From: an uncultured Hyphomicrobiales bacterium
GTDB taxonomy: Bacteria > Pseudomonadota > Alphaproteobacteria > Reyranellales > JAQSWP01
Assembly (NCBI GenBank): GCA_964458605.1
Contig: CAYWLS010000005.1
Coordinates: 81,244 to 145,243 of the forward strand
Direction: 5' to 3'
DNA: 64,000 nucleotides
Of this stretch, positions 44,274 to 64,000 are shown piece by piece (positions within the stretch are counted from its first letter, which is position 1; the number at the start of each line of letters is the position of its first letter). Position numbers and translations under genes: made by a program. The notes beneath the pieces were generated by a model. It was not told where the DNA came from and did not search any database. It was given only the letters and a program-made list of their open reading frames with translations.

Positions 44274-45806
44274 TCACCGCTTCTGCCAATCCCCCAACTG
44301 CTCGACCGCATGGGCGGCGCGGATGGTGGCGGCTTCGTCGAAGTGTTTGCCCACCAGCATGATGCCGATCGGCAGGCCGTCGACCGTGCCGCAGGGCGCG
44401 GTGAAGGCCGGGTGGCCGGACACGTCGAACGGACAGGTGTTCTGCTGCATGTTCAACGCCAGGTCGACATAGTCCTCGCGGCTGGCATCGAGGCCGGGAA
44501 TCTTGGTCGCCGGGAACGGCAGGGTCGGCATGGCCAGCACGTCGTATTTCCGCAGCGCCGCGTCGTAGGCGGCGCGCAGCCCGACGCGCAGGTTCTGCGC
44601 CTTGGCGTGGTAGCGGTTGTGGTAGTGGGTGTGCATGTAGTCGCCCAGCAGCAACACGAGTTTCACCGTCTCCGAGACATCGTCGGCGCGGGCCCGCCAG
44701 CCGCGCGCGAAAGCCTCCTGCAGGGAGGTGGTGTAGTAGCCCATCCAGTTGTTGCCCATGGCGTAGCCCTTGATCATCATCTCGGCCGCGCCTTCCAGGA
44801 TCACCCCGGTCCAGATATGCGGCGCGTCGAGATGCTCGGGGATCGACACCGCCTCGACGATGGCGCCGGCCTTCTTCAATGCCGCCAAGGTCTGCTTCAC
44901 CTTCCTGTCGGTCTGCGGCGTCAGCCTGTTGCCGGTGGGATGGCCGAAACCCTGCGGCAGCACGCCGATCTTCAGGCCCCTGACGCTCTTCTTCAGCGCC
45001 CCGCGATAGTCGCCGACGGCGGCGTTGATGGTGCGCGGATCGTGCGGATCGGGCCCGGCAATGACGCTCAGCAGCAGCGCCACGCTCTCGACGCTGTCGC
45101 AGATCGGCCCGCAGTGATCGACCGAATAGGAGATCGGCATGCTGCCGGTGGTCGGCACCAGGCCCCAGGTGGGCTTCAGCCCGTAGACGCCGCACCAGCC
45201 GGAGGGCGTGCGGATCGAGCCGCCCTGGTCGCCGCCGATCGCCATCGTTACCTCGCCCGCCGCCACCAGCGCGGCGCTGCCGCCGGACGAGCCGCCGGCC
45301 GAATGGGCGGGATTGCGCGGGTTGCGGATCGGCCCGGTGGCGCAGGTGTGGCTGCCGGCGGAGAAGCACAGATCCTCGCAGGCCGCCTTGCCGGCGATGG
45401 TGCCGCCGGCCTCGAGGATGCGCGTCACCACTGTGGCGTCGATATCGGGCACGTAGCCTTCGAGCAGCCGCGAGCCGTTCATCATCGGCACGCCGGCGAC
45501 GCAGATATTGTCCTTGATGGCGACGCGCTTGCCGGCAAGCGGCCCCTTGGCCGCGCCGGCGATGTCGCATTTCCAGTACCAGGCGTTGAACGGATTGTCC
45601 TTCACGTCCGGCCGATGGCCCGGCGTGCGCGGATAGGCGACCGGCAGCTTGGGCTCGGCCAGCTCGTCGAGCCGCGCATAGGACGCCATCGAGCCCGCCA
45701 TCAGGCCACGGAACGACACCGCGTCCTCCTGGGTCAGGGTCAGGCCGAATTTGCGGCCGATGGCGATGAGCTGCTCGGGCGTGGGCAGGCGCGGCGGAAT
45801 GGACAT
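44274..45806 (-). CDS. amidase-signature (AS) family amidase
   Basis: GGSSGGSAA signature and Ser-cisSer-Lys context. 510 aa. Confidence 0.92.
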   Translation of the reverse strand: MSIPPRLPTPEQLIAIGRKFGLTLTQEDAVSFRGLMAGSMASYARLDELAEPKLPVAYPRTPGHRPDVKDNPFNAWYWKCDIAGAAKGPLAGKRVAIKDNICVAGVPMMNGSRLLEGYVPDIDATVVTRILEAGGTIAGKAACEDLCFSAGSHTCATGPIRNPRNPAHSAGGSSGGSAALVAAGEVTMAIGGDQGGSIRTPSGWCGVYGLKPTWGLVPTTGSMPISYSVDHCGPICDSVESVALLLSVIAGPDPHDPRTINAAVGDYRGALKKSVRGLKIGVLPQGFGHPTGNRLTPQTDRKVKQTLAALKKAGAIVEAVSIPEHLDAPHIWTGVILEGAAEMMIKGYAMGNNWMGYYTTSLQEAFARGWRARADDVSETVKLVLLLGDYMHTHYHNRYHAKAQNLRVGLRAAYDAALRKYDVLAMPTLPFPATKIPGLDASREDYVDLALNMQQNTCPFDVSGHPAFTAPCGTVDGLPIGIMLVGKHFDEAATIRAAHAVEQLGDWQKR

Positions 45807-45907: not shown

Positions 45908-45962
45908 CCCAGGGCATAATGCGGCGACGCCAACCGCATTTCGCCATTTCGGAGGGAGCATC

Positions 45963-47477
45963 ATGACGATCAAGCGCGCCACTTTGGGCCAGTTGCAGGA
46001 CATCGCCCGCGATCTGGGCATCACCATGACCGACGAGCGCGCCGCCGAATTCCTCGGCCTGATGCAGGGCAATTTCGACGCCTACGAGATCCTCGAGCAG
46101 ATGCCGGACTACAAGCCGGTGGTGAAGTATCCGCGCACGCCCGGCTATCGGCCCGAGGGCGCGGAGAACAAATACAACGCCTGGTACGTCAAGAGCACGG
46201 TCAAGGGCGCCGATTCGGGCAAGCTCAAAGGCAAGACCGTGGTGCTGAAGGACAATGTCTGCCTGGCCGGCGTGCCGATGATGAACGGCGCCTCGACCCT
46301 GGAAGGCTACACGCCCGACATCGACGCCACCATCGTCACGCGCATCCTCGACGCCGGCGGCACCATCGTCGGCAAGGCGCATTGCGAATTCTTCTGCCTG
46401 TCCGGCGGCAGCCACACCAACGCCATTGCCCCGGTGCACAACCCGTGGAAGATGGGCCACTCCGCCGGCGGCTCCTCCTCGGGCTCGGGCGCGCTGGTGG
46501 CGGCGGGCGAGGTCGATATGGCGATCGGCGGCGACCAGGGCGGCTCGATCCGCATGCCCTCCTCGTTCTGCGGCATCTACGGCATGAAGCCGACCCACGG
46601 CCTGGTGCCCTATACCGGGGTGATGCCGATCGAAGCCACGATCGATCACACCGGACCGATGACCAAGGACGTGGCCGACAACGCGCTGATGCTGGAGGTG
46701 CTGGCCGGCGAGGACGGACTCGACCCGCGCCAATACGCGCCCAAGGTGCACGACTACACCAAGGCGCTGGGCAAGGACGTCAAGGGCCTGAAGATCGCCG
46801 TGGTCAAGCAGGGCTTCGGCCACGCCAATTCGGAGAAGGATGTCGACGACTGCGTGCGCGCCGGCGCCGCGCACTTCAAGACGCTGGGCGCCACGGTCGA
46901 GGAGATCGACCTGCCGATGCATGCGCTGGGCCCGGTGATCTGGACGCCGGTGGCGCTGGAAGGCCTGCAGGCGCAGATGATGTGGGGCAATGGCATGGGC
47001 TACAACTGGAAGGGGCTCTACACCACCAGCCTGCTCGACGCCCACGCCAACTGGCGCGCCAGGGCCGACGAGCTGTCGGACAGCCTGAAGATCTCGATGT
47101 TCGTCGGCGAATATTTCATCAAGCACTATCGCGGCCACTACTACGCCAAGGCGCAGAACCTGGCGCGCAAGCTGAAGGCGGCCTACGACGCGGTGCTGGG
47201 CCAGTACGACCTGCTGCTGATGCCGACCCTGCCGGTCAAGTCGACGCCGATCCCGCCGGCCGACGCGCCGCTGGCGCTCTACCTGCAGCGCGCCTTCGAG
47301 ATGATCGGCAACACCGCGCCGTTCGACGTCACCGGCCACCCGTCGATGACCATTCCCTGCGGCCTGCGCGAGGGCCTGCCGGTCGGGCTGATGCTGACGG
47401 GCAGGAGCTACGACGAGCCGACCATCTATCGCGCCGCCCATGCCTTCGAGCAGAGCGGCGACTGGAAGAAGATGTAA
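45963..47477 (+). CDS. amidase-signature (AS) family amidase (paralogue of 44274..45806)
   Basis: ATG 45963 with GGAGGGA RBS, in frame within artefact ORF 44214..47477. GGSSSGSGA signature. Confidence 0.92.
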   Translation: MTIKRATLGQLQDIARDLGITMTDERAAEFLGLMQGNFDAYEILEQMPDYKPVVKYPRTPGYRPEGAENKYNAWYVKSTVKGADSGKLKGKTVVLKDNVCLAGVPMMNGASTLEGYTPDIDATIVTRILDAGGTIVGKAHCEFFCLSGGSHTNAIAPVHNPWKMGHSAGGSSSGSGALVAAGEVDMAIGGDQGGSIRMPSSFCGIYGMKPTHGLVPYTGVMPIEATIDHTGPMTKDVADNALMLEVLAGEDGLDPRQYAPKVHDYTKALGKDVKGLKIAVVKQGFGHANSEKDVDDCVRAGAAHFKTLGATVEEIDLPMHALGPVIWTPVALEGLQAQMMWGNGMGYNWKGLYTTSLLDAHANWRARADELSDSLKISMFVGEYFIKHYRGHYYAKAQNLARKLKAAYDAVLGQYDLLLMPTLPVKSTPIPPADAPLALYLQRAFEMIGNTAPFDVTGHPSMTIPCGLREGLPVGLMLTGRSYDEPTIYRAAHAFEQSGDWKKM

Positions 47478-47547: not shown

Positions 47548-47847
47548 TCAAAGCCGCTGCGATAGGCGGGCTTTGGCGTGGCGGTCTCTCCAGACGCGCT
47601 CGAACGCCTCGCGGCTGATTTCGACGGGCTCAAATACCGGATTGCTGGCGATCTCGGCAAGGGGCGGCACCGGATAGACGCCTAGACCGGTATCGCCGAC
47701 TTCTCCGGTCGCATCGGCATAGCCGCAGCTTCCATCGGCATGAAGCTCGACCTTGCGAACCTCATAGCGCTCCTCGTCCAGCTCGCTATAGAGCCAGACC
47801 GGCAGATCGGCGTCGGAATGGATCCATTTGACCTTGATATCGCGCAT
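47548..47847 (-). CDS. hypothetical 99-aa protein
   Basis: Clean ORF in lower-G+C DNA with an AT-rich divergent promoter shared with kptA. Function not recognised. Confidence 0.6.
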   Translation of the reverse strand: MRDIKVKWIHSDADLPVWLYSELDEERYEVRKVELHADGSCGYADATGEVGDTGLGVYPVPPLAEIASNPVFEPVEISREAFERVWRDRHAKARLSQRL

Positions 47848-47894: not shown

Positions 47895-48444
47895 ATGGCC
47901 AAGACTGACGAATCGCTGAGCAAATATCTCAGCTACATCCTGCGCCACCGGCCCGACGAGATCGGGCTGCAGCTCGATGGGCAGGGTTGGGCCGCGGTGG
48001 CGGAACTGCTGGCCAAGAGCGCGGCGCACGGCCGCCCTATCGACTTCGGCGCTTTGGTGAATGTCGTCGAGAACGGAGCCAAGAGCCTCGTCCTTGTCCG
48101 AAAACCGGACTCGGATCCGCGCATTGCAAGGGCATTCCGTCCCGATCGAGCTTGGCTTGCAGCCGGTGCAGCCGCCCGCGCTTCTGTACCACGGCACCGC
48201 CTTGAAGTTTCTCGATTCGATCCTGCGGACAGGGCTGGCGAAACAGGCGCGCCATCACGTCCATTTGTCGAGCACGCCGGACAGCGCCTGGATCGTCGGG
48301 CGCCGACGCGGCAAGGCCGCGATACTCCAAATACAGGCGGAACGGATGCACCGCGACGGTTTTGCGTTCATGCGAGCCGAGAACGACGTCTGGCTGACCG
48401 ATGCCGTGCCGACGAAGTATTTCAAACTGCTAGCTCAAGATTGA
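47895..48444 (+). pseudogene. kptA: RNA 2'-phosphotransferase KptA/Tpt1, interrupted by a single frameshift
   Basis: The N-terminal part is in the 47895 frame (LSKYLSYILRHRPDEIGLQLDGQGWAAV..VVENGAK). The remainder is in the 48061 frame (SENRTRIRALQGHSV..LLYHGT..HHVHLS..NDVWLT). The junction lies near 48075..48095. Confidence 0.8.
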
Positions 48445-48553
48445 GCCGCGGCGGCGATAGTGGACTCTGGCGATAGTGGACTCTAGAGCCCGACGCTCGC
48501 TTCAGGAACCGACTTTGTCACCCCCCGCATCAGCGTTTTGACCTCCGCCCGCT

Positions 48554-48904
48554 TCATGATAAGCCGAACTGGGCCTTGAATTCGCTCTCGCTGATGACGC
48601 TGACGGGTAGAAACAGCGACTTGTCGTCGGGATCGCGCAAGCCATCGATGTTCAACATGTGCGGCGTCGGCGGATAGGTGCACACGACCTGGGCCACGAA
48701 CGCTTTGCCCGCCAGATCGGGATTGTCCTTGGCCGCGCGGCCGGCTTCGGCGAAGTGCATGCACAGCCCCGGCTTCTTGTGTAGCAGTTCCTCACGCTCA
48801 CGCGGATCGCCGATCGGCTCGTTGTCGAAGATCACCAGCGCCAGGCGGTGGTCGTCGTTGGGCAGCCGCACCACCATGTCGATCGCATCGCTTCTCAGGC
48901 TCAT
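48554..48904 (-). CDS. immunity-like small protein (paralogue of 60865..61257)
   Basis: 116 aa. Shares the identical 13-mer QVVCTYPPTPHML and a C-terminal E.F.AQFG motif with 60865..61257. Downstream of the toxin-like gene. Confidence 0.7.
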   Translation of the reverse strand: MSLRSDAIDMVVRLPNDDHRLALVIFDNEPIGDPREREELLHKKPGLCMHFAEAGRAAKDNPDLAGKAFVAQVVCTYPPTPHMLNIDGLRDPDDKSLFLPVSVISESEFKAQFGLS

Positions 48905-48952: not shown

Positions 48953-49714
48953 TCAATACCGATCGCGCAGCGACGGCAGATCGCGCGGCACGAAGCCATG
49001 ACGCTCTCGGAATTCGGCCTCGGTCACGAACTCGACCGGCAACACGATATCAGGGTATGTCGGATCGCTTACCGATGTGATCGCGCGCATTGCCGGGGTC
49101 GGCATCGCGGCATAGACAACTTCGATCAACGGCCTATCGCTAGAGAACACATAATTATATTCCTCGAAGTCCCCCGAGGCGACACGAGCGGCGCAGCGCA
49201 GCAGCTTTTCATGCAGCGTTGCCTCTCGCTGTGCGGCGCTGGCCACTCGGCCGTCATCCAGCACTACAATAGTGCCGCCGAGTTGCTGGCCCTTGACGTG
49301 CACAAGGAGATCTCCGGGAGATCGCCCGATCCACGTCAGCCATTCGACGCCCAGCTTGATCCGTTGCTGAACCTCATTTAGGGACAAAATTGTATACGAC
49401 TCGTTACCGGCCCAGACATCATCCCATGCTGGTAAGTGGAGCAGAAGAGGATCAGGACTTCTTCCTCTATAGGCCAATTGCGTGATGAACGGCCGAGGCG
49501 TCCCTGTCGCCGTTGCTAGATTTGCACGATCTTCGGGCAAGTCCCACTCAGATTCGGGCTCGCCGTCAAAATAGAGTTCCAGCCACGCCAAGTCATCAAC
49601 ATTACAATGCAAGACATTATTCCATGCATAGGTTTCTCCAAAATTCCGAAAGCACGCCGTAAGGACGCCGATATCCAGCGGCTTTTTGGAGAAGAAGAAA
49701 AAAGAGTTCGCCAC
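48953..49714 (-). CDS. immunity-like protein, fusion of two domains found as separate genes at 61257..61655 and 60865..61257
   Basis: 253 aa. The N-half aligns to the 132-aa ORF (NESYTILSLNEVQQRIKLGVEW vs NEYGVIFTVREIQRRLKSGEEW). The C-half aligns to the 130-aa ORF (EAEFRERHGF vs LEGFYAQFGM). It begins 15 nt after the toxin stop. Confidence 0.7.
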   Translation of the reverse strand: MANSFFFFSKKPLDIGVLTACFRNFGETYAWNNVLHCNVDDLAWLELYFDGEPESEWDLPEDRANLATATGTPRPFITQLAYRGRSPDPLLLHLPAWDDVWAGNESYTILSLNEVQQRIKLGVEWLTWIGRSPGDLLVHVKGQQLGGTIVVLDDGRVASAAQREATLHEKLLRCAARVASGDFEEYNYVFSSDRPLIEVVYAAMPTPAMRAITSVSDPTYPDIVLPVEFVTEAEFRERHGFVPRDLPSLRDRY

Positions 49715-49729
49715 GTTGAATCCTCAATC

Positions 49730-52384
49730 TCACTTAAATTTATCCAATAAATCCTGACGATTTTTGATAGGTGTATGGCCTTTACCAGCGATAGATTTCT
49801 CCGCGTGCCCCATATTGCGACTATACCCAATCCCGGGCAATCCAGACACACTCACCGCGCGATCAAGTTGCTCCGCAAGTCCACTGGCGCTGCTGCTTTC
49901 TTCAATGACATATTTCCTCGTGACGATATCAACTTCTTTTCTTAAAAGCGGGTTGTTCAAATCGATGATGAAGCAATGCACGCAGACCACTTCGTTTGGG
50001 TGGTTTTTCTCAATCTCATTGGCGAGCCCGGCTACTCGGCGCTGTGACCTGTTTTGGCCTGCATCAATCGCCGTTGCTTGAAATGATCTCGTGCCATCTG
50101 CACTACGCACTTCGCTGCCCTTATCCGCCCGCCAAAGAAACTGGCCAGGTGATTTTGTCGAAGTCGAAGGCATCGGCAACAGAATCGTATCGGGCTTGTA
50201 AGCTGCGGCAAATTTCGCCACATCCGCTTCGGTCTTGATCAAGCCTGCCGACTGAAATGCCTTCATCTGGTCGGCGAAATCGACATGGTAAGCCGGATCG
50301 ATGGCGCGCTTCCATGCCGCCGCCGGACTACCCCATCCGGGCAGCGGCGGCGTTGGGCTTGGCAATGGTCTGCGCGGCGCACCCGGCGGCAGGTCAGTTG
50401 ACGGCTTCGCCCCCGCCGTCACACCCGGCTGCCCGACACTCCCCGGAGATTGACCACCCGGGCTCGGCTGCCCGGACGACGACGATGCAGCACTCGCTGT
50501 ACCTGGCTTTCTCGGCGGCACCGCAGCGGACCCGCCACCGCCGCTGTCGCCGCCGGCCGGGGCGCGGGCGATGCGGCTGCCGAAGCCGCCCATCATTCCC
50601 AGGCCGAAGCCGGTGAAGCCAGCCATCAGCGAATCGATGCCGATCTGAGACCAGGGCACTTCCTCGCCCCATCGCTCCCGCCATGGCTTGGTCAGCGATT
50701 CGCTGGCGGCGGTCTTTGCGCTGACCGCCGCGCCGGTCTTCAGGGCGTCGAGGGCGATTCTTCCGCCCTGCGTCTTGACGACGTTGGCGAGTTCGCCGCT
50801 GCCGATCGCCCGCAGCACGCTGGGAATGCCGATCCGGGCGATGTTGAAGATCTGCTTGCCGGCCATCCCCAGCGGAACGATGTTGGTCGGGTCGCTGACG
50901 AAGCCCAGCGTCTTGCCCGCCGCGCGAATGAACGGATCGTCCGGCGCATGGCCGATCTGATAGATCCGGTCTTGCATGGCGTCGAACAGGTCGGCCTTGG
51001 CTCGCGCTCGCTCCCGCGTCATGAACGGCTCGAACGGCATGGCGCGCTTCAGCTCGGGATCGTTGTTCCACTCCTCTTCGGTCAGGAACTCCACGCCCAT
51101 GCCGCGCAGCGCCTGTTCGATTTCCGCCTGCTTGGCCTTTCGCTGGTCTTCCGGCAGCGCCGCCAGGTACGACGCGAAGCCCTGCCGCACGTCGATCGGC
51201 CAGGGGAAACTGGCGATCTGGTCGGGCTTGCGCTCCCCGTTGAGGACGAGGCCGTAGAGGCGCTTCGTCTTCTCCGCGTCGAGCTGCTGGATTGCCGAAG
51301 GCGGCAAGGCGATCTCGTCGAGACCGCGGCCAACCCATTGGTGGAAGCCTTGCCCTATCTCGGCGCCGAAATAGCGAAAAGTCGGCGCCACATAAGGCTT
51401 GCTGTTCACAACGGCTTCGATATCGCTTGCCGACACCGTCGAGGCTGGCGCCGGCGGCGCAGCGGGTGACGGCGGCGACGCAGCCGTCGAGCCGCTGGCC
51501 GGGATGGTCGATGGATGGTCGCCATCGCCGCTGGCGATCGGACCGATGTCGCCGCCCGGAGGCGTGCCAGCGGCGCCGCCACCGGCGATGTCGTCGCCGC
51601 TGTCCTTGGCAGCGATATAGTTGGCGCCGGCATCGGTGACGGCGGCGAGCCTGGCATAGGTCGCCGGATCGACCTGGCCGGCGGCCTGGGCCAGCACGAT
51701 CCGCGCGCCGGGCACATTGCCGCTGTCGAACTGGCTGGCGATCGCCGCGCCGAACAGATGGCCGTTCCATTCGCTGGCGCGGCGATTGGTTTCCTGCGCG
51801 CTCCAGCCGTTGCGCTGGCCGATCTTGCGCCATTCGCCATCGCCGCGCGCCACCGCCAGATCGAGCCGGAACGGATCGTGGCTCCAGTAATGCGCATCGT
51901 GCAGATCGGCCGCCAGTGTGCCGAGCGATCCCAGGTCGAGCATCTGGCGATGCTGGCCAATGCGATAGCTTTGGCCGTCCTGCAGGTGCTCCTCATGCGC
52001 CTGGTCCAGGCGCGGCTGCAGCAGCGGCAGCACTGCCGGCGAAACGCTGGCGATGGCCTGGTCGCGATGGCTTTCCAAGGTGTTTCGATAGGTGTCGTAG
52101 GCGTCGGCCGCGCCGTTCTGGCCGCTCTGGCTGCCGTAATCGCCCAGCGCCGTCAGCGCGGCGCGGCGATAGACGTTCAGCGCGTCGTTGGCGGCGCTGT
52201 CATTGGCCCTAAGACGTCGGTCGAGCGAATAGGTGCGGTACGGGTCCGGCCCGGCCGGAGCGGTGCCGGACGAGACCGGATCGAACGGGATGATGTCGGT
52301 GCCGGGATCGAGGGCGGTGTCGGGATCGGGAGGGGCGAAGATAAGGGCCATGCGCGTCGCGAGCGTTGGATGGGGTCCGCCCAT
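49730..52384 (-). CDS. large modular polymorphic-toxin-like protein (toxin A), 884 aa
   Basis: Modules: an N-terminal region, a core shared with 61663..63282 (MPFEPFMT.., DPTN.., Gly-rich hydrophobic stretch), Pro/Ser/Gly linkers, and a low-G+C C-terminal domain homologous to the C-terminus of 61663..63282. An alternative start lies at 52351. Confidence 0.75.
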   Translation of the reverse strand: MGGPHPTLATRMALIFAPPDPDTALDPGTDIIPFDPVSSGTAPAGPDPYRTYSLDRRLRANDSAANDALNVYRRAALTALGDYGSQSGQNGAADAYDTYRNTLESHRDQAIASVSPAVLPLLQPRLDQAHEEHLQDGQSYRIGQHRQMLDLGSLGTLAADLHDAHYWSHDPFRLDLAVARGDGEWRKIGQRNGWSAQETNRRASEWNGHLFGAAIASQFDSGNVPGARIVLAQAAGQVDPATYARLAAVTDAGANYIAAKDSGDDIAGGGAAGTPPGGDIGPIASGDGDHPSTIPASGSTAASPPSPAAPPAPASTVSASDIEAVVNSKPYVAPTFRYFGAEIGQGFHQWVGRGLDEIALPPSAIQQLDAEKTKRLYGLVLNGERKPDQIASFPWPIDVRQGFASYLAALPEDQRKAKQAEIEQALRGMGVEFLTEEEWNNDPELKRAMPFEPFMTRERARAKADLFDAMQDRIYQIGHAPDDPFIRAAGKTLGFVSDPTNIVPLGMAGKQIFNIARIGIPSVLRAIGSGELANVVKTQGGRIALDALKTGAAVSAKTAASESLTKPWRERWGEEVPWSQIGIDSLMAGFTGFGLGMMGGFGSRIARAPAGGDSGGGGSAAVPPRKPGTASAASSSSGQPSPGGQSPGSVGQPGVTAGAKPSTDLPPGAPRRPLPSPTPPLPGWGSPAAAWKRAIDPAYHVDFADQMKAFQSAGLIKTEADVAKFAAAYKPDTILLPMPSTSTKSPGQFLWRADKGSEVRSADGTRSFQATAIDAGQNRSQRRVAGLANEIEKNHPNEVVCVHCFIIDLNNPLLRKEVDIVTRKYVIEESSSASGLAEQLDRAVSVSGLPGIGYSRNMGHAEKSIAGKGHTPIKNRQDLLDKFK

Positions 52385-57150: not shown

Positions 57151-57185
57151 ATCTCTCTAAAGTGTAGAACAAATTCACACCTTTC

Positions 57186-57209
57186 GACGGAATCCGGAAC
57201 GATTCCGTC
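57186..57209 (-). terminator. hairpin downstream of the lysis cassette
   Basis: GACGGAATC-cggaac-GATTCCGTC forms a perfect 9-bp stem. It lies 16 nt past the spanin stop. Confidence 0.5.
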
Positions 57210-57224
57210 AAAAGGCGATTTGCT

Positions 57225-57497
57225 CTAGCGGGCGGCGGCGAGCTTCCTGATCTCGGCCATGTTGGCCTGGCAGGCATGCAGCGCCGCCAGCGCGATCTCA
57301 ACCACCGCGGCGGCGTCCTTCTGCGTCGCGATCGGCCGGGGCGCGGGGTCGTCGGGGCAGACCAGCAGCGCCTGGGGGATGGTGACGCGCTCGACTTTAG
57401 TGACGACGATCGGCGGCGCAGGCTGGGGCGTGCCACAGGCGGCTAAAGGAAGCGCACAGCACATCGGCCACAGGGCCATCCTGCTCGGGCGGCGCAT
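57225..57497 (-). CDS. o-spanin (Rz1-like outer-membrane lipoprotein), overlapped with the i-spanin gene
   Basis: Signal and lipobox ALPLAAC followed by a Pro-rich mature part. The gene starts inside the 3' end of 57397..57813 in another frame. Confidence 0.7.
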   Translation of the reverse strand: MRRPSRMALWPMCCALPLAACGTPQPAPPIVVTKVERVTIPQALLVCPDDPAPRPIATQKDAAAVVEIALAALHACQANMAEIRKLAAAR

Positions 57498-57813
57498 TCT
57501 GGATCTCCATCAGGCGTTGGTTGAGATCGGCGTTCTCCTGCTGCAGCCGGACCAGCCGCGCCGCGGTGGCGGCATCGGTCATCGCCTGCCAGGCCTTCAG
57601 CGCGGCGATCGCCTGCCGTTGCTCGAGCGCGGCCTGGGCGGCGATGCGCGTGCGGTAGTCGGCGAACGCCGCGCGCTGCTGCGCCAGCGCGCTGTCGCTG
57701 CGCTGCAGGCGCAAGGTCTGCACGCCCAGCAGCACGGCCAGCGCGATCAGCGGCCATAGCCAAAGCGGCAGCTTGCGCACCGCGGCCAGCGCAAGAGACA
57801 GGCTCGCGCTCAC
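57397..57813 (-). CDS. i-spanin (Rz-like)
   Basis: GTG 57813 overlaps the endolysin-like stop (GTGA). N-terminal TM LPLWLWPLIALAVLLGV is followed by a coiled-coil-like Ala/Gln/Arg-rich region. Confidence 0.7.
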   Translation of the reverse strand: MSASLSLALAAVRKLPLWLWPLIALAVLLGVQTLRLQRSDSALAQQRAAFADYRTRIAAQAALEQRQAIAALKAWQAMTDAATAARLVRLQQENADLNQRLMEIQNAPPEQDGPVADVLCASFSRLWHAPACAADRRH

Positions 57814-58589
57814 GACGTCGCCCTGGCCGGCCGGTTCTTCTGGCGCTGCAGCCACCAGTGCCAGGCCAGGCCGGCGGCGATCAGCGCCAGCAGCGCCACC
57901 CCGCCCCATTTGAACAGATAGCCGTATTGCTGCAGGAACGTCTGGCCGCGCTCGATGACGACGCCGGGATCGATCGGCGCCGGGATCGACCCCGGCGGCG
58001 CGGCCGGCAAGCCGGGCAGCGGCGGCGGATAGGTCGGCGCGATCGCGCTGCCGGTGGCGGCAGCGGTTGCCGCAGCCGCGCCGGCGGCCGGCGCCATCGT
58101 GCCCAGCGGCCTTGGCGGGCGCAGCACGCCGTATTGCGCCAGGCCCCAATCGATCTGCTGGTCGTTCCACCAGCGATAGGGATCGCCGCCCTGCTCGACC
58201 GCGGCCATCGCCAGCAGCACCGGCTTGAGATGCGCGTAGCGATGGAAGTCGAGGACGGCGTTGGCGGCAAAGCCGGTGGCGCCCGTCACGCGCGCGATAT
58301 AGGCGGCGGTGTCGTTGCGATCCTGCGGCGGCGCCCAGCCCGGCCGATAGTCGGGCTGGCCGTAGCTGCCGCTGCCGCCGATCAGCGTCGCGATGGTGTC
58401 GTGGCCCCAGCGGTCGTAATGGGCGATCACGTTGCCCGCCGCGCAGCGCCAGCCCTTGGCCGGCCCGTCGAAATGCAGGAAATCGCCGGCGCCGGTGTGT
58501 TCGACGGCGATCACGCCTTGCCATTTGCTGCGGCCATCGGGTCGCACATTGAGCGGATTGTTGAAGCGCACGCCGGAAGGAAGAGCCAT
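57810..58589 (-). CDS. putative endolysin-like protein with C-terminal TM anchor
   Basis: Positioned between the holin-like and spanin genes. N-terminal RFNNPLNVRP..W.G motif, a Pro/Ala linker and a C-terminal TM WGGVALLALIAAGLAWHWWL. Enzymatic class not established. Confidence 0.5.
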   Translation of the reverse strand: MALPSGVRFNNPLNVRPDGRSKWQGVIAVEHTGAGDFLHFDGPAKGWRCAAGNVIAHYDRWGHDTIATLIGGSGSYGQPDYRPGWAPPQDRNDTAAYIARVTGATGFAANAVLDFHRYAHLKPVLLAMAAVEQGGDPYRWWNDQQIDWGLAQYGVLRPPRPLGTMAPAAGAAAATAAATGSAIAPTYPPPLPGLPAAPPGSIPAPIDPGVVIERGQTFLQQYGYLFKWGGVALLALIAAGLAWHWWLQRQKNRPARATS

Positions 58590-58597
58590 CGGTCACC

Positions 58598-60309
<1,712 letters not shown>

Positions 60310-60443: not shown

Positions 60444-60750
60444 TCATGGCGGCGATCCAATTCGCCAACGGCTTGGACCAGGCGGCAAAGACGTGCTGGG
60501 TATTACCGCCGATGCCCCGGCTTCCGAGCAGCGGTGCATCACCGTCCGCAACGGCGCCCCGCCGATGCCGGCCAGCGCATTGTCCGGCAGCGATGCCGCG
60601 CCATGAACTGCCCCGGCAGCGAATGCCACCAGCCGTCGCCGAACTTCGCCGCCAGGTACTGGCCCAGCGGCGTCTCGTAATCCGTCAGCGCCTGAAAGTA
60701 CCCCCCGCATCCGCTACACGATCGCTCTCGATCGGATCAAGCAGGTCCAC
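60444..60750 (-). pseudogene. decayed duplicate of the 5' end of toxin B
   Basis: 60545..60750 aligns nearly base-for-base with 63068..63282. ATG is replaced by GTG, and single-base indels cause frameshifts and an early stop. Similarity decays with indels down to about 60444. Confidence 0.8.
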
Positions 60751-60864: not shown

Positions 60865-61257
60865 TCAGGTCGGGTTTCGTTCCACAGATTGCGCCGCGCC
60901 GGGCGGCCTCATGCCGAACTGCGCATAGAAACCCTCGAGGCTCATCACCTCGACCGGCACGATCACCGACTTGTCCTCGCGGCTGCGCAACGCATGGATC
61001 TCCAGCATATGCGGTGTCGGCGGATAGGTACAAACTACCTGGATCACCGCCGCCTTGCCGACCACGCTGGCGTCGAAATTCTCCATGGCGCCCGACGTGA
61101 TGATCTTGAGATAGCCGGCGAGCTTCCTGTGCAACAATTGCTCACGCTCACCCGCGTCTGCGATCGGCTCGGCGTCGAAGATCACCATGGCGATACGTCC
61201 GTCTTCGTCCGGCAGCCGCACCGCCATGTCGAGATTGGTCGGTTCGTTCAATGCCAT
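60865..61257 (-). CDS. immunity-like small protein (B2)
   Basis: ATG 61257 overlaps the upstream TAA by 1 nt (TAATG). Paralogue of 48554..48904 (QVVCTYPPTPHML). Confidence 0.7.
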   Translation of the reverse strand: MALNEPTNLDMAVRLPDEDGRIAMVIFDAEPIADAGEREQLLHRKLAGYLKIITSGAMENFDASVVGKAAVIQVVCTYPPTPHMLEIHALRSREDKSVIVPVEVMSLEGFYAQFGMRPPGAAQSVERNPT

Positions 61258-61655
61258 TACAGGAACTCCTCGCCGACCGTCTCCCACTCCTCGCCGGATT
61301 TCAGGCGACGCTGGATTTCCCTTACAGTGAAAATCACGCCGTATTCATTACAAATGAATAAATTATCAGTAGCTGGAAGCCGGCTGACCGCTAAGTTAAC
61401 TGACACCGAGTTTCTGAACGGTAGACCCGCAAAAAAAGGGCGACCAATCAAAGCGAGTAATCTGACCTTCTCATCTGGTTCGAATTCTGCCAGCACAGAA
61501 TCCGTCCCTCCCAAATCGATATGAAACCAACCCCAGTCATCATTCTGAACCACCAACCTTTCACCATAAACCGCAGCTTTGCCAATATCGTGGTACAGAT
61601 CGGCAAGGGCGGGCAGGTCAAGATCTCTCTCGGAAACAATGATCATCTCTTTCAT
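61257..61655 (-). CDS. immunity-like small protein (B1)
   Basis: 132 aa in low-G+C DNA. Starts 7 nt after the toxin B stop. Homologous to the N-half of 48953..49714. Confidence 0.7.
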   Translation of the reverse strand: MKEMIIVSERDLDLPALADLYHDIGKAAVYGERLVVQNDDWGWFHIDLGGTDSVLAEFEPDEKVRLLALIGRPFFAGLPFRNSVSVNLAVSRLPATDNLFICNEYGVIFTVREIQRRLKSGEEWETVGEEFL

Positions 61656-61662
61656 GCGCGCC

Positions 61663-63282
61663 TCATGGTTTGATAACCTCTCTGAGCAGCTTTTCGTCTT
61701 TGGTCACCAGTCCCCCTGCATTGCCAATGCCTCGAATGATGCTAGGACCCAAATCTGGTCCATAGCCGATAGTCGGAAAGCCAGTTAGCTTTTCGTACCG
61801 TAATACTTGATGGGTAAGTTTTCCGCCTGTTCCTGCTTTTACCTGGATCACTGCATTGCGAGTCAAGATATCGATTTCTCCTACTTTATCTCCAGTATGC
61901 GGGTCGATTAGCTCGCAATTAGTGCAAACGACATGTCCCGGATTGTCCCGCTCGATTTCATTGGCGCGGTCAGCTACATGCTTATCGGTCGACGCAAAGC
62001 TTCGTCTGCCATCCTTGCCGATGCTGATCGGGGTCGTTTCCTTTAGCACGAGTTTAGGAGAGGTTATGCCCTTGGCATAGTTGGCCATGCCAAAATGTAC
62101 CTGGTCGGCCCGATATTTGTAGCCGTTGTCGATGAAATCTTGAATAGCGACACCAAACAATTTGTGTTTGTCTGCCAGACTCATCTGATCGAGGAGTTGT
62201 TCGATAGGCGTATTGCCTAATGCACCGGTCACCCGTGCGCCGGATTTTGCAGGAACAGAAGCTACTGAAAGTTGTTGGCTGGTTACTCCGCTCATCCCCG
62301 CAGGTGACTGCGTCGGTACAACGGTGTTTGGGCCTAGCCCAGATGCATTAGCCAAGGGATTTCCTGGAGTAACGCCACTTGGCATGCTCTGAGTTTGTAA
62401 TGAAACTTTCCCGCCAACCGGCTCCTGGGGCGACCGCAGGATGCGGACACCATGGGCGCCCGCGCCCACCACGCTGCCCAGCGCCGCCGCCAGCCCCGCA
62501 TTGCGCCAGATCTCGCTGTCGCTTAGCGTCTCGCCCCAGCGCGCCAGCGGCTGCTTGATCGCATAGCCCTGCACCACCGCCGGCAGCGCGCCGCTCAGCG
62601 CCCCGATGCCGCCAGCCTTCGCCAGTGTCAGGCCACCGGTACGCGCCAGCCCCAGCACCAGCTTGCCTCCCGCGCCCCAGCCCAGCAGGTTGGTCGGGTC
62701 CGCCGCGCCCCCCGCCATCCCCGCCAGGAACCCCAACGTGCCGCTCAGCACGCCATCCGGCCGATGCGCGATCAGCCAGTCCCGCACCCGGTTGGTGTCG
62801 TAGATCGCCGCCTTCGCCTTGGCCCGCGCCGGCGTCATGAACGGCTCGAACGGCATGTCCCGATAGTCCGGCGACGCCCGCCACTCGGCCTCGGTGTAGA
62901 ACCTGTAGCCCGCCTGCTTCAGCACCTGCTCAACCTGCGGCAGGACCTGCTGCCGCTGCCCCGCCGGCAGGGCGTTCAACCGCTCCATGACCAGGTCCTG
63001 CGGCAACGGCGTGCTGGGCATCGCCACCGACGCCCCCGGCTGCCGCGCGGCCACCGGGATCAGGTGCATCACCGTCCTCAACGGCGCCCCGCCGATACCT
63101 GCCAGCGCATTGTCCGGCAGCGATGCTGCCGCCATGAACTGCCCCGGCAGCGAATGCCACCAGCCGTCGCCGAACTTCGCCGCCAGGTACTGGCCCAACG
63201 GCGTCTCGTAATCCGTCAGCGCCTGAAAGTAGTCCCCCGCATCCGCCACACGATCGCTCTCGATCGGATCAAGCAGGTTCAT
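61663..63282 (-). CDS. polymorphic-toxin-like protein (toxin B), 539 aa
   Basis: ATG 63282 overlaps the stop of the upstream gene (ATGA). The core is homologous to toxin A. The low-G+C C-terminal domain has ANEIE, VVCTNC and EIDILTRNAVIQVK motifs. Confidence 0.75.
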   Translation of the reverse strand: MNLLDPIESDRVADAGDYFQALTDYETPLGQYLAAKFGDGWWHSLPGQFMAAASLPDNALAGIGGAPLRTVMHLIPVAARQPGASVAMPSTPLPQDLVMERLNALPAGQRQQVLPQVEQVLKQAGYRFYTEAEWRASPDYRDMPFEPFMTPARAKAKAAIYDTNRVRDWLIAHRPDGVLSGTLGFLAGMAGGAADPTNLLGWGAGGKLVLGLARTGGLTLAKAGGIGALSGALPAVVQGYAIKQPLARWGETLSDSEIWRNAGLAAALGSVVGAGAHGVRILRSPQEPVGGKVSLQTQSMPSGVTPGNPLANASGLGPNTVVPTQSPAGMSGVTSQQLSVASVPAKSGARVTGALGNTPIEQLLDQMSLADKHKLFGVAIQDFIDNGYKYRADQVHFGMANYAKGITSPKLVLKETTPISIGKDGRRSFASTDKHVADRANEIERDNPGHVVCTNCELIDPHTGDKVGEIDILTRNAVIQVKAGTGGKLTHQVLRYEKLTGFPTIGYGPDLGPSIIRGIGNAGGLVTKDEKLLREVIKP

Positions 63283-64000
63283 TGCGGCAGCCCATCGATG
63301 GCGTAGCTGGGGAGCTGATACTGCGCAGGGTAGCCCAATAGCATCCCGGGAGGCAGCACCGCCCAATCGCGGTGCTCCTTGCCGAGCGCCAGCACTTGAT
63401 CAAGTGTGAAGACGAGCGGGCGGCCGGTTTCGTCCGGCAGCAACTTGCCGCTGCTCAACACCAACGCATATTCGCCGTCCTTGCCGCTCTTGAAATCGAT
63501 CCAGCGGGCCTTGGCGCTCTCTTGCGCTGCCGTTGCTTTGGCCATTTCCACCAGTTGCGAATCATCCTCGGGCAATCGCTTGAGGAAGTAGTTGGCGATC
63601 AGTTGGCCGCGCAAATAGTGAAATCCTTGAATCAGGCGTTCTTTATCCCCTTCCGCCGCCCGAGGAATGAATGCCGCCACCAAATTCTGATCGATCAACG
63701 GCACACGATCGCCCATCACCGCGCCAATTCCCGCGCCTGGATCGGGCCGATCGCGCGCTACATTGGCGATCATCGTCGCTTCTTCTATGCCCCTGTTGCG
63801 ATAGTCTTCGTTATGCGTCCATTGTGTCGTCATCTCGTAAACGGCAAAATATGGCGCAAACGGACTCATCTTGCGAAGCAGGTCGGCATGCTCGTCTGGG
63901 CTCAGCTTATGATGGGCGACGATGCTGGATTGAAGGAGATCCAGGGCTCCATCCTCATTGCCGCGACCGGCGGCCTGCACTATGTAGGGCAGCGTCTTGG
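63279..64000 (-). CDS. hypothetical protein translationally coupled to toxin B, 5' end outside window
   Basis: The reading frame is open to the window edge. No family recognised. Confidence 0.6.
   Translation of the reverse strand, partial: KTLPYIVQAAGRGNEDGALDLLQSSIVAHHKLSPDEHADLLRKMSPFAPYFAVYEMTTQWTHNEDYRNRGIEEATMIANVARDRPDPGAGIGAVMGDRVPLIDQNLVAAFIPRAAEGDKERLIQGFHYLRGQLIANYFLKRLPEDDSQLVEMAKATAAQESAKARWIDFKSGKDGEYALVLSSGKLLPDETGRPLVFTLDQVLALGKEHRDWAVLPPGMLLGYPAQYQLPSYAIDGLPQ

Follow-up and report, generated by a model that had tools for sequence, protein, structure and literature searches.

A Rhs-type toxin-immunity cassette probably grafted on the trunk of a podophage internal-virion protein in an uncultured alphaproteobacterium

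The DNA considered here is a stretch of 64,000 nucleotides from an uncultured Hyphomicrobiales bacterium (contig CAYWLS010000005.1, positions 81,244 to 145,243 of the forward strand), referred to below as the window. Its right-hand end carries a series of minus-strand genes in which a toxin-like gene lies between phage genes and a tail fibre gene. In the direction of transcription these begin with the 3′ part of an upstream internal-virion gene, here called up (63279..>64000), which continues past the window edge. It is followed by the gene of a protein of 539 amino acids (aa), w539 (61663..63282), whose start and the stop of up share the letters ATGA, as read directly in ctgccgcaATGAacctg. 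This protein is composed of a trunk (aa 1-290; 62413..63282), a Ser/Pro/Gly-rich linker with a pre-toxin region (aa 291-400; 62083..62412) that is disordered in the AlphaFold2 (AF2) model, and a C-terminal toxin domain (aa 401-539; 61666..62082). Behind it are a 132-aa gene (61257..61655), the candidate cognate immunity gene, and a DUF6572-type gene (60865..61257 for 130 aa from an ATG, or ..61287 for 140 aa from a GTG), the start of which is most likely the ATG at 61257, as in the gene call of locus L015. A frameshifted pseudo-copy of trunk codons 1 to ~95 (60482..60749), the tail fibre and the lysis genes complete the series. This gene order, the ATGA overlap and the linker behind the trunk agree with an initial annotation made from the sequence alone. 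A second, diverged copy of the design, the 884-aa protein w884 (49730..52384, minus strand), lies further to the left. The locus is probably a Rhs-type toxin-immunity cassette grafted on the N-terminal trunk of a podophage internal-virion (ejection) protein.

The trunk has many relatives, a HMMER search with aa 1-300 of w539 against 1.84 billion representatives returning 253 clusters at E<=1e-3. The conserved core of this family corresponds to aa 116-290, and most members are 550-640 aa long. Canonical members possess the trunk, then a variable middle and then a conserved C-terminal segment of ~50 aa, and 118 such tails cluster together. With the PHROGs, trunk aa 183-309 match phrog_342 (internal virion protein with endolysin domain) at E 9e-8, a profile which the trunk relative of locus L009 matches at E 3e-17, while alignment of the trunk with ORF15 of Pseudomonas phage Ab31 by hhalign has a probability of 90%. 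The gene neighbourhood was compared in nine IMG/VR contigs, two genomic loci (a Rhodospirillales and a Pseudomonadota metagenome-assembled genome, MAG), Logan contigs and phage Ab31. In 11 viral or genomic loci and in Ab31 the trunk gene lies in the same structural block. Its full order, present in L009, Ab31 and L020, is capsid, tail tubular A (phrog_394), tail tubular B (phrog_376), small internal virion protein(s), a ~700-aa up protein, the trunk protein, a ~880-aa virion protein (phrog_684) and the fibre, with the shorter loci showing the part from up to fibre. By tblastn (E down to 1e-8), the up gene of the window is homologous to the gene ahead of the trunk-family member in L001, L004, L012, and L013. 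As the start of w539 overlaps the stop of up, the protein is probably co-translated with the virion genes. The phage that hosts this gene belongs to the temperate podophages of the T7 supergroup and has a structural module like those of Ab31, epsilon15, and HTVC010P.

Internal-virion (ejection) proteins are understood to exit the capsid and to enter the envelope of the recipient cell. The family resembles the gp14/gp15/gp16 core (ejectosome) of T7 in its slot between the tail tubular proteins and the fibre, in the PHROG label of internal virion protein and in the lytic domains carried by neighbouring family members. Unlike the T7 core proteins, it has no sequence or fold match to the solved ones, and the equivalence comes from synteny and the PHROG profiles. 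The trunk gave no tblastn match among isolated phages, and its AF2 model, with a predicted local distance difference test (pLDDT) score of 58.7, gave none in BFVD or the PDB. The Gly-zipper-like hydrophobic stretches described in the initial annotation are indeed rich in Gly; they are weakly hydrophobic (best 19-mer Kyte-Doolittle value of 1.44) and therefore not classical transmembrane helices. It may be added that the up protein of the Rhodospirillales MAG prophage (L012 7512-10004) holds an M23-peptidase-like motif, GPHLHFEV, and that ORF14 of Ab31, the equivalent of up, is annotated as an endolysin; from these two observations the wall-degrading function of this phage group seems to sit in up and not in the trunk protein.

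In the 150 listed representatives of the trunk family, Pfam identified polyvalent-type domains only, namely ddrB-ParB (16), PBECR1/3 (8), LPD3 (6), ART-PolyVal (5), Zeta toxin (4), and RelA_SpoT (2), together with GNAT, SLT, and FtsK-gamma. These effector domains are hallmarks of injected polyvalent proteins (PMC5512222), which are predicted to be packaged and injected with the phage DNA (Iyer et al., 2017, PMC5512222). From homology and synteny, the trunk is what stays constant in a phage protein family with swappable effector domains, encoded between the other internal virion proteins and the fibre. It is a scaffold undescribed in Pfam and is not among the LPD families of polyvalent proteins listed there, while falling within the described polyvalent class (PMC5512222). 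The initial annotation had recognized no known trafficking trunk, which holds with regard to Rhs core, PAAR, VgrG, and MuF, none of which was matched, and has to be qualified with regard to the class.

The C-terminal domain of w539, by its homology, is a genuine polymorphic-toxin C-terminus shared with a Rhs protein. In a tblastn search against plasmids, aa 425-539 show 55.7% identity (E 3e-29) to the C-terminus of WP_024750100.1, a Rhs protein encoded on plasmid pOB3b3 of Methylosinus trichosporium OB3b, in which the Rhs core (TIGR03696) is detected at E 7e-19. Among the collections searched for toxin relatives, only that of plasmids yielded a Rhs match, and the domain has no match in Pfam, NCBIfam, PDB sequences, PADLOC, a word-index search or the phage collection. 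The sharing of this domain with a Rhs protein, along with the position of w884 away from phage neighbors, could also be taken to mean that the trunk is a recognition or adaptor module for another export machine, such as a type VI secretion system (T6SS) firing related Rhs toxins, with no part for phage particles. Against such a role, neither w539 nor w884 matches PAAR, VgrG, MIX, RHS repeats or the TIGR03696 core, and every trunk relative of known context lies in a phage structural module, making this explanation very improbable. The Rhs locus of pOB3b3 (L022 1-12400) comprises three orphan Rhs C-terminal fragments among transposases of IS66, IS6, and IS630, with Imm26 and YrhB genes interspersed; one of the fragments carries the toxin domain of the window.

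Six residues are invariant in the three known copies of the toxin domain, these being E442, E444, D460, D471, Q492, and R495 in w539 numbering. In the Q480-x-K482 motif, the Lys is present in the Rhs copy and lost in w884. The AF2 model of the domain (mean pLDDT 60.5; 60-86 over the domain) has three strands, a helix with the conserved NEIE and three further strands, followed by alternating helices and strands. In the second group of strands, strand 2 begins at D471 and strand 3 bears Q480-V-K482. At a pLDDT of only 60-86, this order of elements follows the PD-(D/E)xK core (alpha-beta-beta-beta-alpha-beta), and the best Foldseek match, a weak one, is to the RecB-like nuclease EndoMS/NucS (E 8e-3, TM 0.35). 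The domain may be a PD-(D/E)xK-type nuclease, in which E442/E444, D471, and Q480-x-K482 would be the candidates for catalysis. A deaminase, suggested by a CxxC motif and low-probability APOBEC matches, was also considered and set aside, as the Rhs copy does not retain the cysteines, which are located in a strand.

The two small genes behind w539 have counterparts behind the Methylosinus toxin. The next gene after the Rhs gene there encodes 127 aa and is 31-32% identical to the 132-aa gene of the window (E 2e-16); behind it is an annotated DUF6572 gene homologous to the 140-aa gene (E 7e-10; 28% identity). Pfam PF20212 (DUF6572) matches the 130/140-aa gene with 25.3 bits (E 1.9e-5), below the gathering cut-off of 27 bits, the other score obtained in the window being 19.5 bits. 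Sequences of the 132-aa type and of the DUF6572 type follow, in this order, behind all three toxin copies. By these homologies the C-terminal ~115 aa of the toxin, the 132-aa gene and the DUF6572 gene form a three-gene unit, which in Methylosinus sits on a Rhs core. The window cassette is like that of Methylosinus in gene order, in all three genes (56% identity for the toxin, with the immunity and DUF6572 values given above) and in a low G+C content at third codon positions (GC3), and unlike it in its carrier, which is a Rhs core (TIGR03696) there and a virion-protein trunk here.

In Streptococcus suis, DUF6572 is a conserved C-terminal region of the immunity proteins of type VII secretion system (T7SS) toxins, whose N-terminal part neutralizes the toxin, while DUF6572 is dispensable for neutralization and aids export of the effector (PMC12558993). 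Both forms of DUF6572 occur in the window, split from the immunity gene in the first cassette and, in the second, fused within a 253-aa protein and also present as a stand-alone 116-aa gene. The N-terminal half of the 253-aa protein and the 132-aa gene share 29% identity. Thus both small genes which the initial annotation had termed immunity-like are homologous to genes that follow a Rhs toxin, and one of them is of the DUF6572 type known from immunity proteins. The same annotation had offered, as its second hypothesis, a prophage-encoded abortive-infection or anti-phage defence module. Prophages often carry accessory cargo close to their lysis genes, as here, and the logic of toxin plus antidote resembles that of toxin-antitoxin defence systems. 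PADLOC, however, has no match at E<=0.1 for any of nine proteins, the toxin is joined to the trunk of a virion protein and the identical three-gene unit sits on a Rhs exotoxin. The cassette is of the interbacterial-toxin type, and a defence module is hardly credible. A further homologue of the 132-aa gene is found on Rhizobium sp. N324 plasmid pRspN324d (L023 7001-7384), amid small hypothetical, ankyrin-repeat and DUF4279 genes and IS630. This island looks like an orphan immunity-gene island.

The cassette also bears on whether w539 is an early phage effector of the polyvalent kind, with an injected domain attacking the nucleic acids or defences of the new host to the benefit of the phage, and with immunity genes that only guard the cell during virion assembly. 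All other family members carry domains of the takeover or counter-defence type (ddrB-ParB, PBECR, ART, Zeta), and the concept is a described one (PMC5512222). As with polyvalent proteins, the trunk relatives carry ddrB-ParB, PBECR, ART-PolyVal, LPD3, and Zeta among virion genes. Unlike those proteins, w539 and w884 each have a single recognizable effector, drawn from the Rhs repertoire, have no Pfam polyvalent domain and are followed by immunity-type genes, whereas the main text of PMC5512222 does not use the term 'immunity protein'. Moreover, canonical members do without immunity genes, a Rhs toxin has the same cassette, DUF6572 immunity partners belong to systems of interbacterial competition and the stand-alone w884, outside a phage, fits poorly with a purely infection-stage role. 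An early effector of this kind is therefore quite unlikely.

W884 is a second, stand-alone and diverged copy of the same design. It has an N-terminal region, a trunk (aa 331-620), a Gly/Ser/Pro linker and a toxin domain (aa ~761-884), and is followed on the minus strand by the 253-aa fused immunity protein (48953..49714), with an N-terminal half like the 132-aa gene and a DUF6572-like C-terminal half, and by the 116-aa DUF6572-type gene (48554..48904; PF20212 E 1.2e-3), which is 53% identical to the 140-aa gene. The initial annotation was right that the trunk is shared, as aa 331-884 of w884 align with the whole of w539 (28% identity, E 2e-40), and MPFEPFMT (aa 143-150 in w539, 449-456 in w884) and DPTN (195-198 and 498-501) are found in both. 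Despite this low identity, neither protein has lost the residues which the trunk alignment shows to be invariant. The two toxins do not differ in the type of their C-termini, as these domains are homologous (38% identity, E 4e-15), and the immunity genes likewise. No match to w884 was obtained by tblastn against plasmids. Its N-terminal 330 aa (51395-52384, minus strand) match no Pfam or PHROG family and no other family member. Relatedness of this region to up was considered and rejected, with an hhalign probability of 0.1% and no PHROG match.

The toxin-immunity unit is compositionally foreign, with low GC3. In w539, GC3 is 0.91 over aa 1-285, 0.43 over aa 286-360 and 0.50 over aa 361-539, as had been anticipated from the visibly AT-richer DNA of the C-terminal domain, and it is 0.53 in the 132-aa gene. 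The trunk of w884 has a GC3 of 0.86 against 0.51 for its toxin domain, with 0.55 for the N-terminal half of the 253-aa gene, while the Rhs core of Methylosinus has 0.83 against 0.48 for its toxin domain. In both window copies the drop coincides exactly with the edge of the trunk, and a corresponding break is seen in the Rhs gene.

The toxin, immunity and DUF6572 genes of the first cassette form a 2.53-kb unit bracketed by direct repeats of the ~270 bp at the 5′ end of the trunk gene. The upstream arm (63000..63281) is the 5′ end of the intact w539 gene and the downstream arm is the pseudo-copy at 60482-60749, the two sharing 87-97% nucleotide identity with frameshifting indels (89% over 282 columns by blastn). 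The repeat families D4, D7, and D11 have a spacing of 2530-2532, and the pseudo-copy needs three reading frames. Logan contigs from this strain match the window with 100% identity and break off at the 270-bp repeat. The decayed copy of the 5′ end of the toxin gene noted in the initial annotation is thus real as a frameshifted direct repeat, which spans codons 1 to ~95 only; an apparent extension to aa 179 contains stops and is spurious. A remnant of the ~880-aa gene was searched for between the pseudo-fragment and the fibre, and none was found. In the simplest history, a resident trunk gene would have undergone insertion or duplication at its 5′ end, and a later deletion would have taken away the remainder of that gene along with the core gene. 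With this ~880-aa core gene gone, the prophage is probably defective and no longer able to make infectious virions.

These traces of decay raise the prospect that the locus is genomic debris, that is, an orphan Rhs-type cassette that entered a structural gene of a decaying prophage through chance recombination, giving a chimera without delivery function whose immunity genes are kept only as protection from the Rhs toxins of neighbors. The core gene is missing and a frameshifted gene fragment adjoins the cassette, the fusion is known from a single genome and w884 is outside any phage context. In addition, the 132-aa gene has its homologue in the Rhizobium island of small genes, and the Rhs homologue belongs to an array of orphan Rhs fragments. 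Such an accident would not be expected to leave two paralogues at 28% identity which are both long intact open reading frames (ORFs), with the same trunk-linker-toxin order and the invariant trunk residues kept, nor a junction exactly at the trunk domain boundary, nor a start translationally coupled to the upstream virion gene. An origin as debris is accordingly unlikely.

A number of observations nevertheless weigh against an ejection protein armed with a Rhs-type cassette. The ~880-aa phrog_684 gene is absent from the window, although it follows the trunk gene in all relatives with downstream sequence, and the pseudo-fragment marks a rearrangement; production of the particle may have ceased. 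W539 and w884 are without the ~50-aa C-terminal segment conserved in the family, their tails falling outside the 118-member cluster, and this segment may be needed for assembly. The initial annotation had raised the question whether trunk homologues are prophage-borne with variable C-termini and small ORFs behind them. They do lie in phage structural loci with variable effectors; the effector-bearing canonical relatives, however, have no immunity genes, and the next gene overlaps directly. In 150 family representatives, w539 and w884 are the only fusions with this C-terminus, and w884 has metabolic genes around it, away from the phage late operon. Searches of IMG/VR and of the metagenomes of the Joint Genome Institute (JGI) returned neither the toxin nor this DUF6572 variant, two scans of the JGI metagenomes for the toxin domain giving two chance matches only, both with stop codons. 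Finally, the enzymatic class is weakly supported, given the mean pLDDT of the toxin model, the weak EndoMS match and the Lys lost in w884. The first hypothesis of the initial annotation, in which a virion or ejection trunk carries a toxin, is supported in part, by homology and synteny, and tempered by a probably defective prophage without its ~880-aa core gene. The identities of the modules are solid and the sharing of the cassette across systems is notable, against which stand the single genome and the probable defect of the prophage.

If w539 is nevertheless a Rhs-type toxin on an ejection-protein trunk, then the trunk would direct the protein into the core of the capsid and thence via the ejection channel into a recipient cell, where the C-terminal domain would act. 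The 132-aa protein would neutralize the toxin in the producing lysogen, and the DUF6572 protein would be an accessory or handling factor, as reported for the T7SS immunity proteins. Both the activity of the toxin and its delivery by particles are inferred.

The toxins with a MuF domain, found in phages of Firmicutes, offer the nearest comparison. Like these (Jamet et al., 2017, PMC5576092), w539 has an N-terminal virion-associated domain and a toxin C-terminus, and its gene is followed by a candidate immunity gene and belongs to the structural or packaging genes of a prophage; for the MuF toxins, transfer by phage particles has been proposed. Unlike these, its trunk is unrelated, with no MuF domain (no Pfam match at E<=0.1), and is instead a podophage core or ejection protein in a high-GC, alphaproteobacterium-like genome. 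Moreover, MuF toxins are widespread and have many C-termini, whereas two fusions are known for this trunk. The Bxa toxin of Bacteroides (PMC11699363) is likewise a prophage toxin with the conserved N-terminal domain of a polymorphic family and two protective genes after it. It differs in its N-terminal domain, in being an ADP-ribosyltransferase and in its immunity proteins, which are of other kinds and of which one is enzymatic. By analogy, the present arrangement would be to podophages what MuF and Bxa are to their own prophages. It would be a branch of the polyvalent internal-virion proteins (PMC5512222) that gained a toxin of the Rhs repertoire together with its immunity genes. The locus itself is not a Rhs, MuF or defence-system member, as the defining features of each were looked for and not found.

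With regard to polymorphic toxins in the sense of Zhang et al. (2012), the toxin domain does occur on an unrelated trunk, that of the Rhs protein, and a downstream gene, predicted to confer immunity, travels with it in three copies. Of the many C-termini that the term calls for, the variable regions of the trunk family are of the polyvalent type, with the Rhs type in 2/150 representatives, and the label "polymorphic" is only partly earned.

A broader proposal, which can be put forward tentatively and with some doubt, is that a podophage core protein has been turned into a trafficking trunk for Rhs-type interbacterial toxins, so that phage particles, or those of a defective prophage with its fibre and lysis genes retained, would serve as contact-independent injectors. 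In the same proposal, lysogens would be protected by the immunity protein together with the DUF6572 handling factor, and w884 would be packaged in trans. If true, this would constitute a new trafficking class of polymorphic toxins in Proteobacteria, and cassettes of toxin, immunity and DUF6572 genes would move between T6SS/Rhs, T7SS and phage ejection systems. Prophage-borne polymorphic toxins are known from Firmicutes (MuF) and Bacteroides (Bxa), and the carrier here is of a class understood to leave the capsid. The locus offers a clean setting in which to test, in a Gram-negative organism, whether phage particles inject toxins, and direct evidence of the exchange of toxin cassettes between secretion-system effectors and virion proteins. 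It also extends DUF6572, so far studied with streptococcal T7SS toxins, to Rhs and phage contexts in Alphaproteobacteria, a wider range that hints at a general role in the handling of toxins.

Behind the pseudo-copy, the minus-strand late operon continues with fibre and lysis genes, all of which are intact ORFs. The 478-aa tail fibre (58852..60288) is modular in structure, with a T7-type N-terminal adaptor, a collagen-like G-X-Y array and a glycine-rich C-terminal domain. Its aa 1-130 match phrog_1640 (E 2e-23), this adaptor domain being common to the fibres of L005, L007, and L011-L013, and the C-terminal part matches Pfam Gly_rich_2. The G-X-Y array, at 59528-59833 within the gene, has a 9-nt period with 18 in-register repeat copies. 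Next to it is a gene for a 90-aa protein (58598..58870), a holin-like candidate from hydropathy, with a single C-terminal hydrophobic helix and no family match in profile searches including Pfam and PHROGs. The endolysin (57810..58589; phrog_873, E 6e-26) has a hydrophobic C-terminal anchor indicated by hydropathy, a terminal helix that is unusual for a soluble endolysin. It is a stand-alone protein whose match in phrog_873 (positions 354-504 of 1277) corresponds to the lytic segment within very large internal virion proteins. A candidate i-spanin (57397..57813) is predicted from its N-terminal hydrophobic helix and coiled coil, with neither a PHROG nor a Pfam match, and is followed by an Rz-like spanin lipoprotein (57225..57497; phrog_456, E 1.6e-11) with the lipobox LAAC. 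The fibre and lysis set proposed in the initial annotation is thereby borne out by PHROGs for the fibre, the endolysin and the Rz-like spanin; the holin is without a family match and has only one hydrophobic helix. Directly after the spanin, a terminator-like hairpin with a 17-bp stem (57178..57217) closes the late operon.

Leftward of the terminator are metabolic genes, encoding HD-domain, CoA-transferase III, HMGL-like and hexapeptide proteins, and then the w884 gene with its two small genes. Beside this second cassette lies a gene for a KptA/Tpt1 RNA 2′-phosphotransferase (47895-48476, plus strand). Its profile is split over two frames, with PF01885 positions 2-62 in 47895-~48090 and positions 70-176 in 48061-48444, and it is therefore a frameshifted pseudogene. 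Adjoining this kptA remnant, beside the toxin island, is a 99-aa DUF6881 gene (47548-47847, minus strand; PF21812 E 5.5e-33). To the left of the second toxin island there are also two divergent, back-to-back amidase-like paralogues with the GGSSGG signature, located at 44274-45806 (minus strand) and ~45960-47477 (plus strand).

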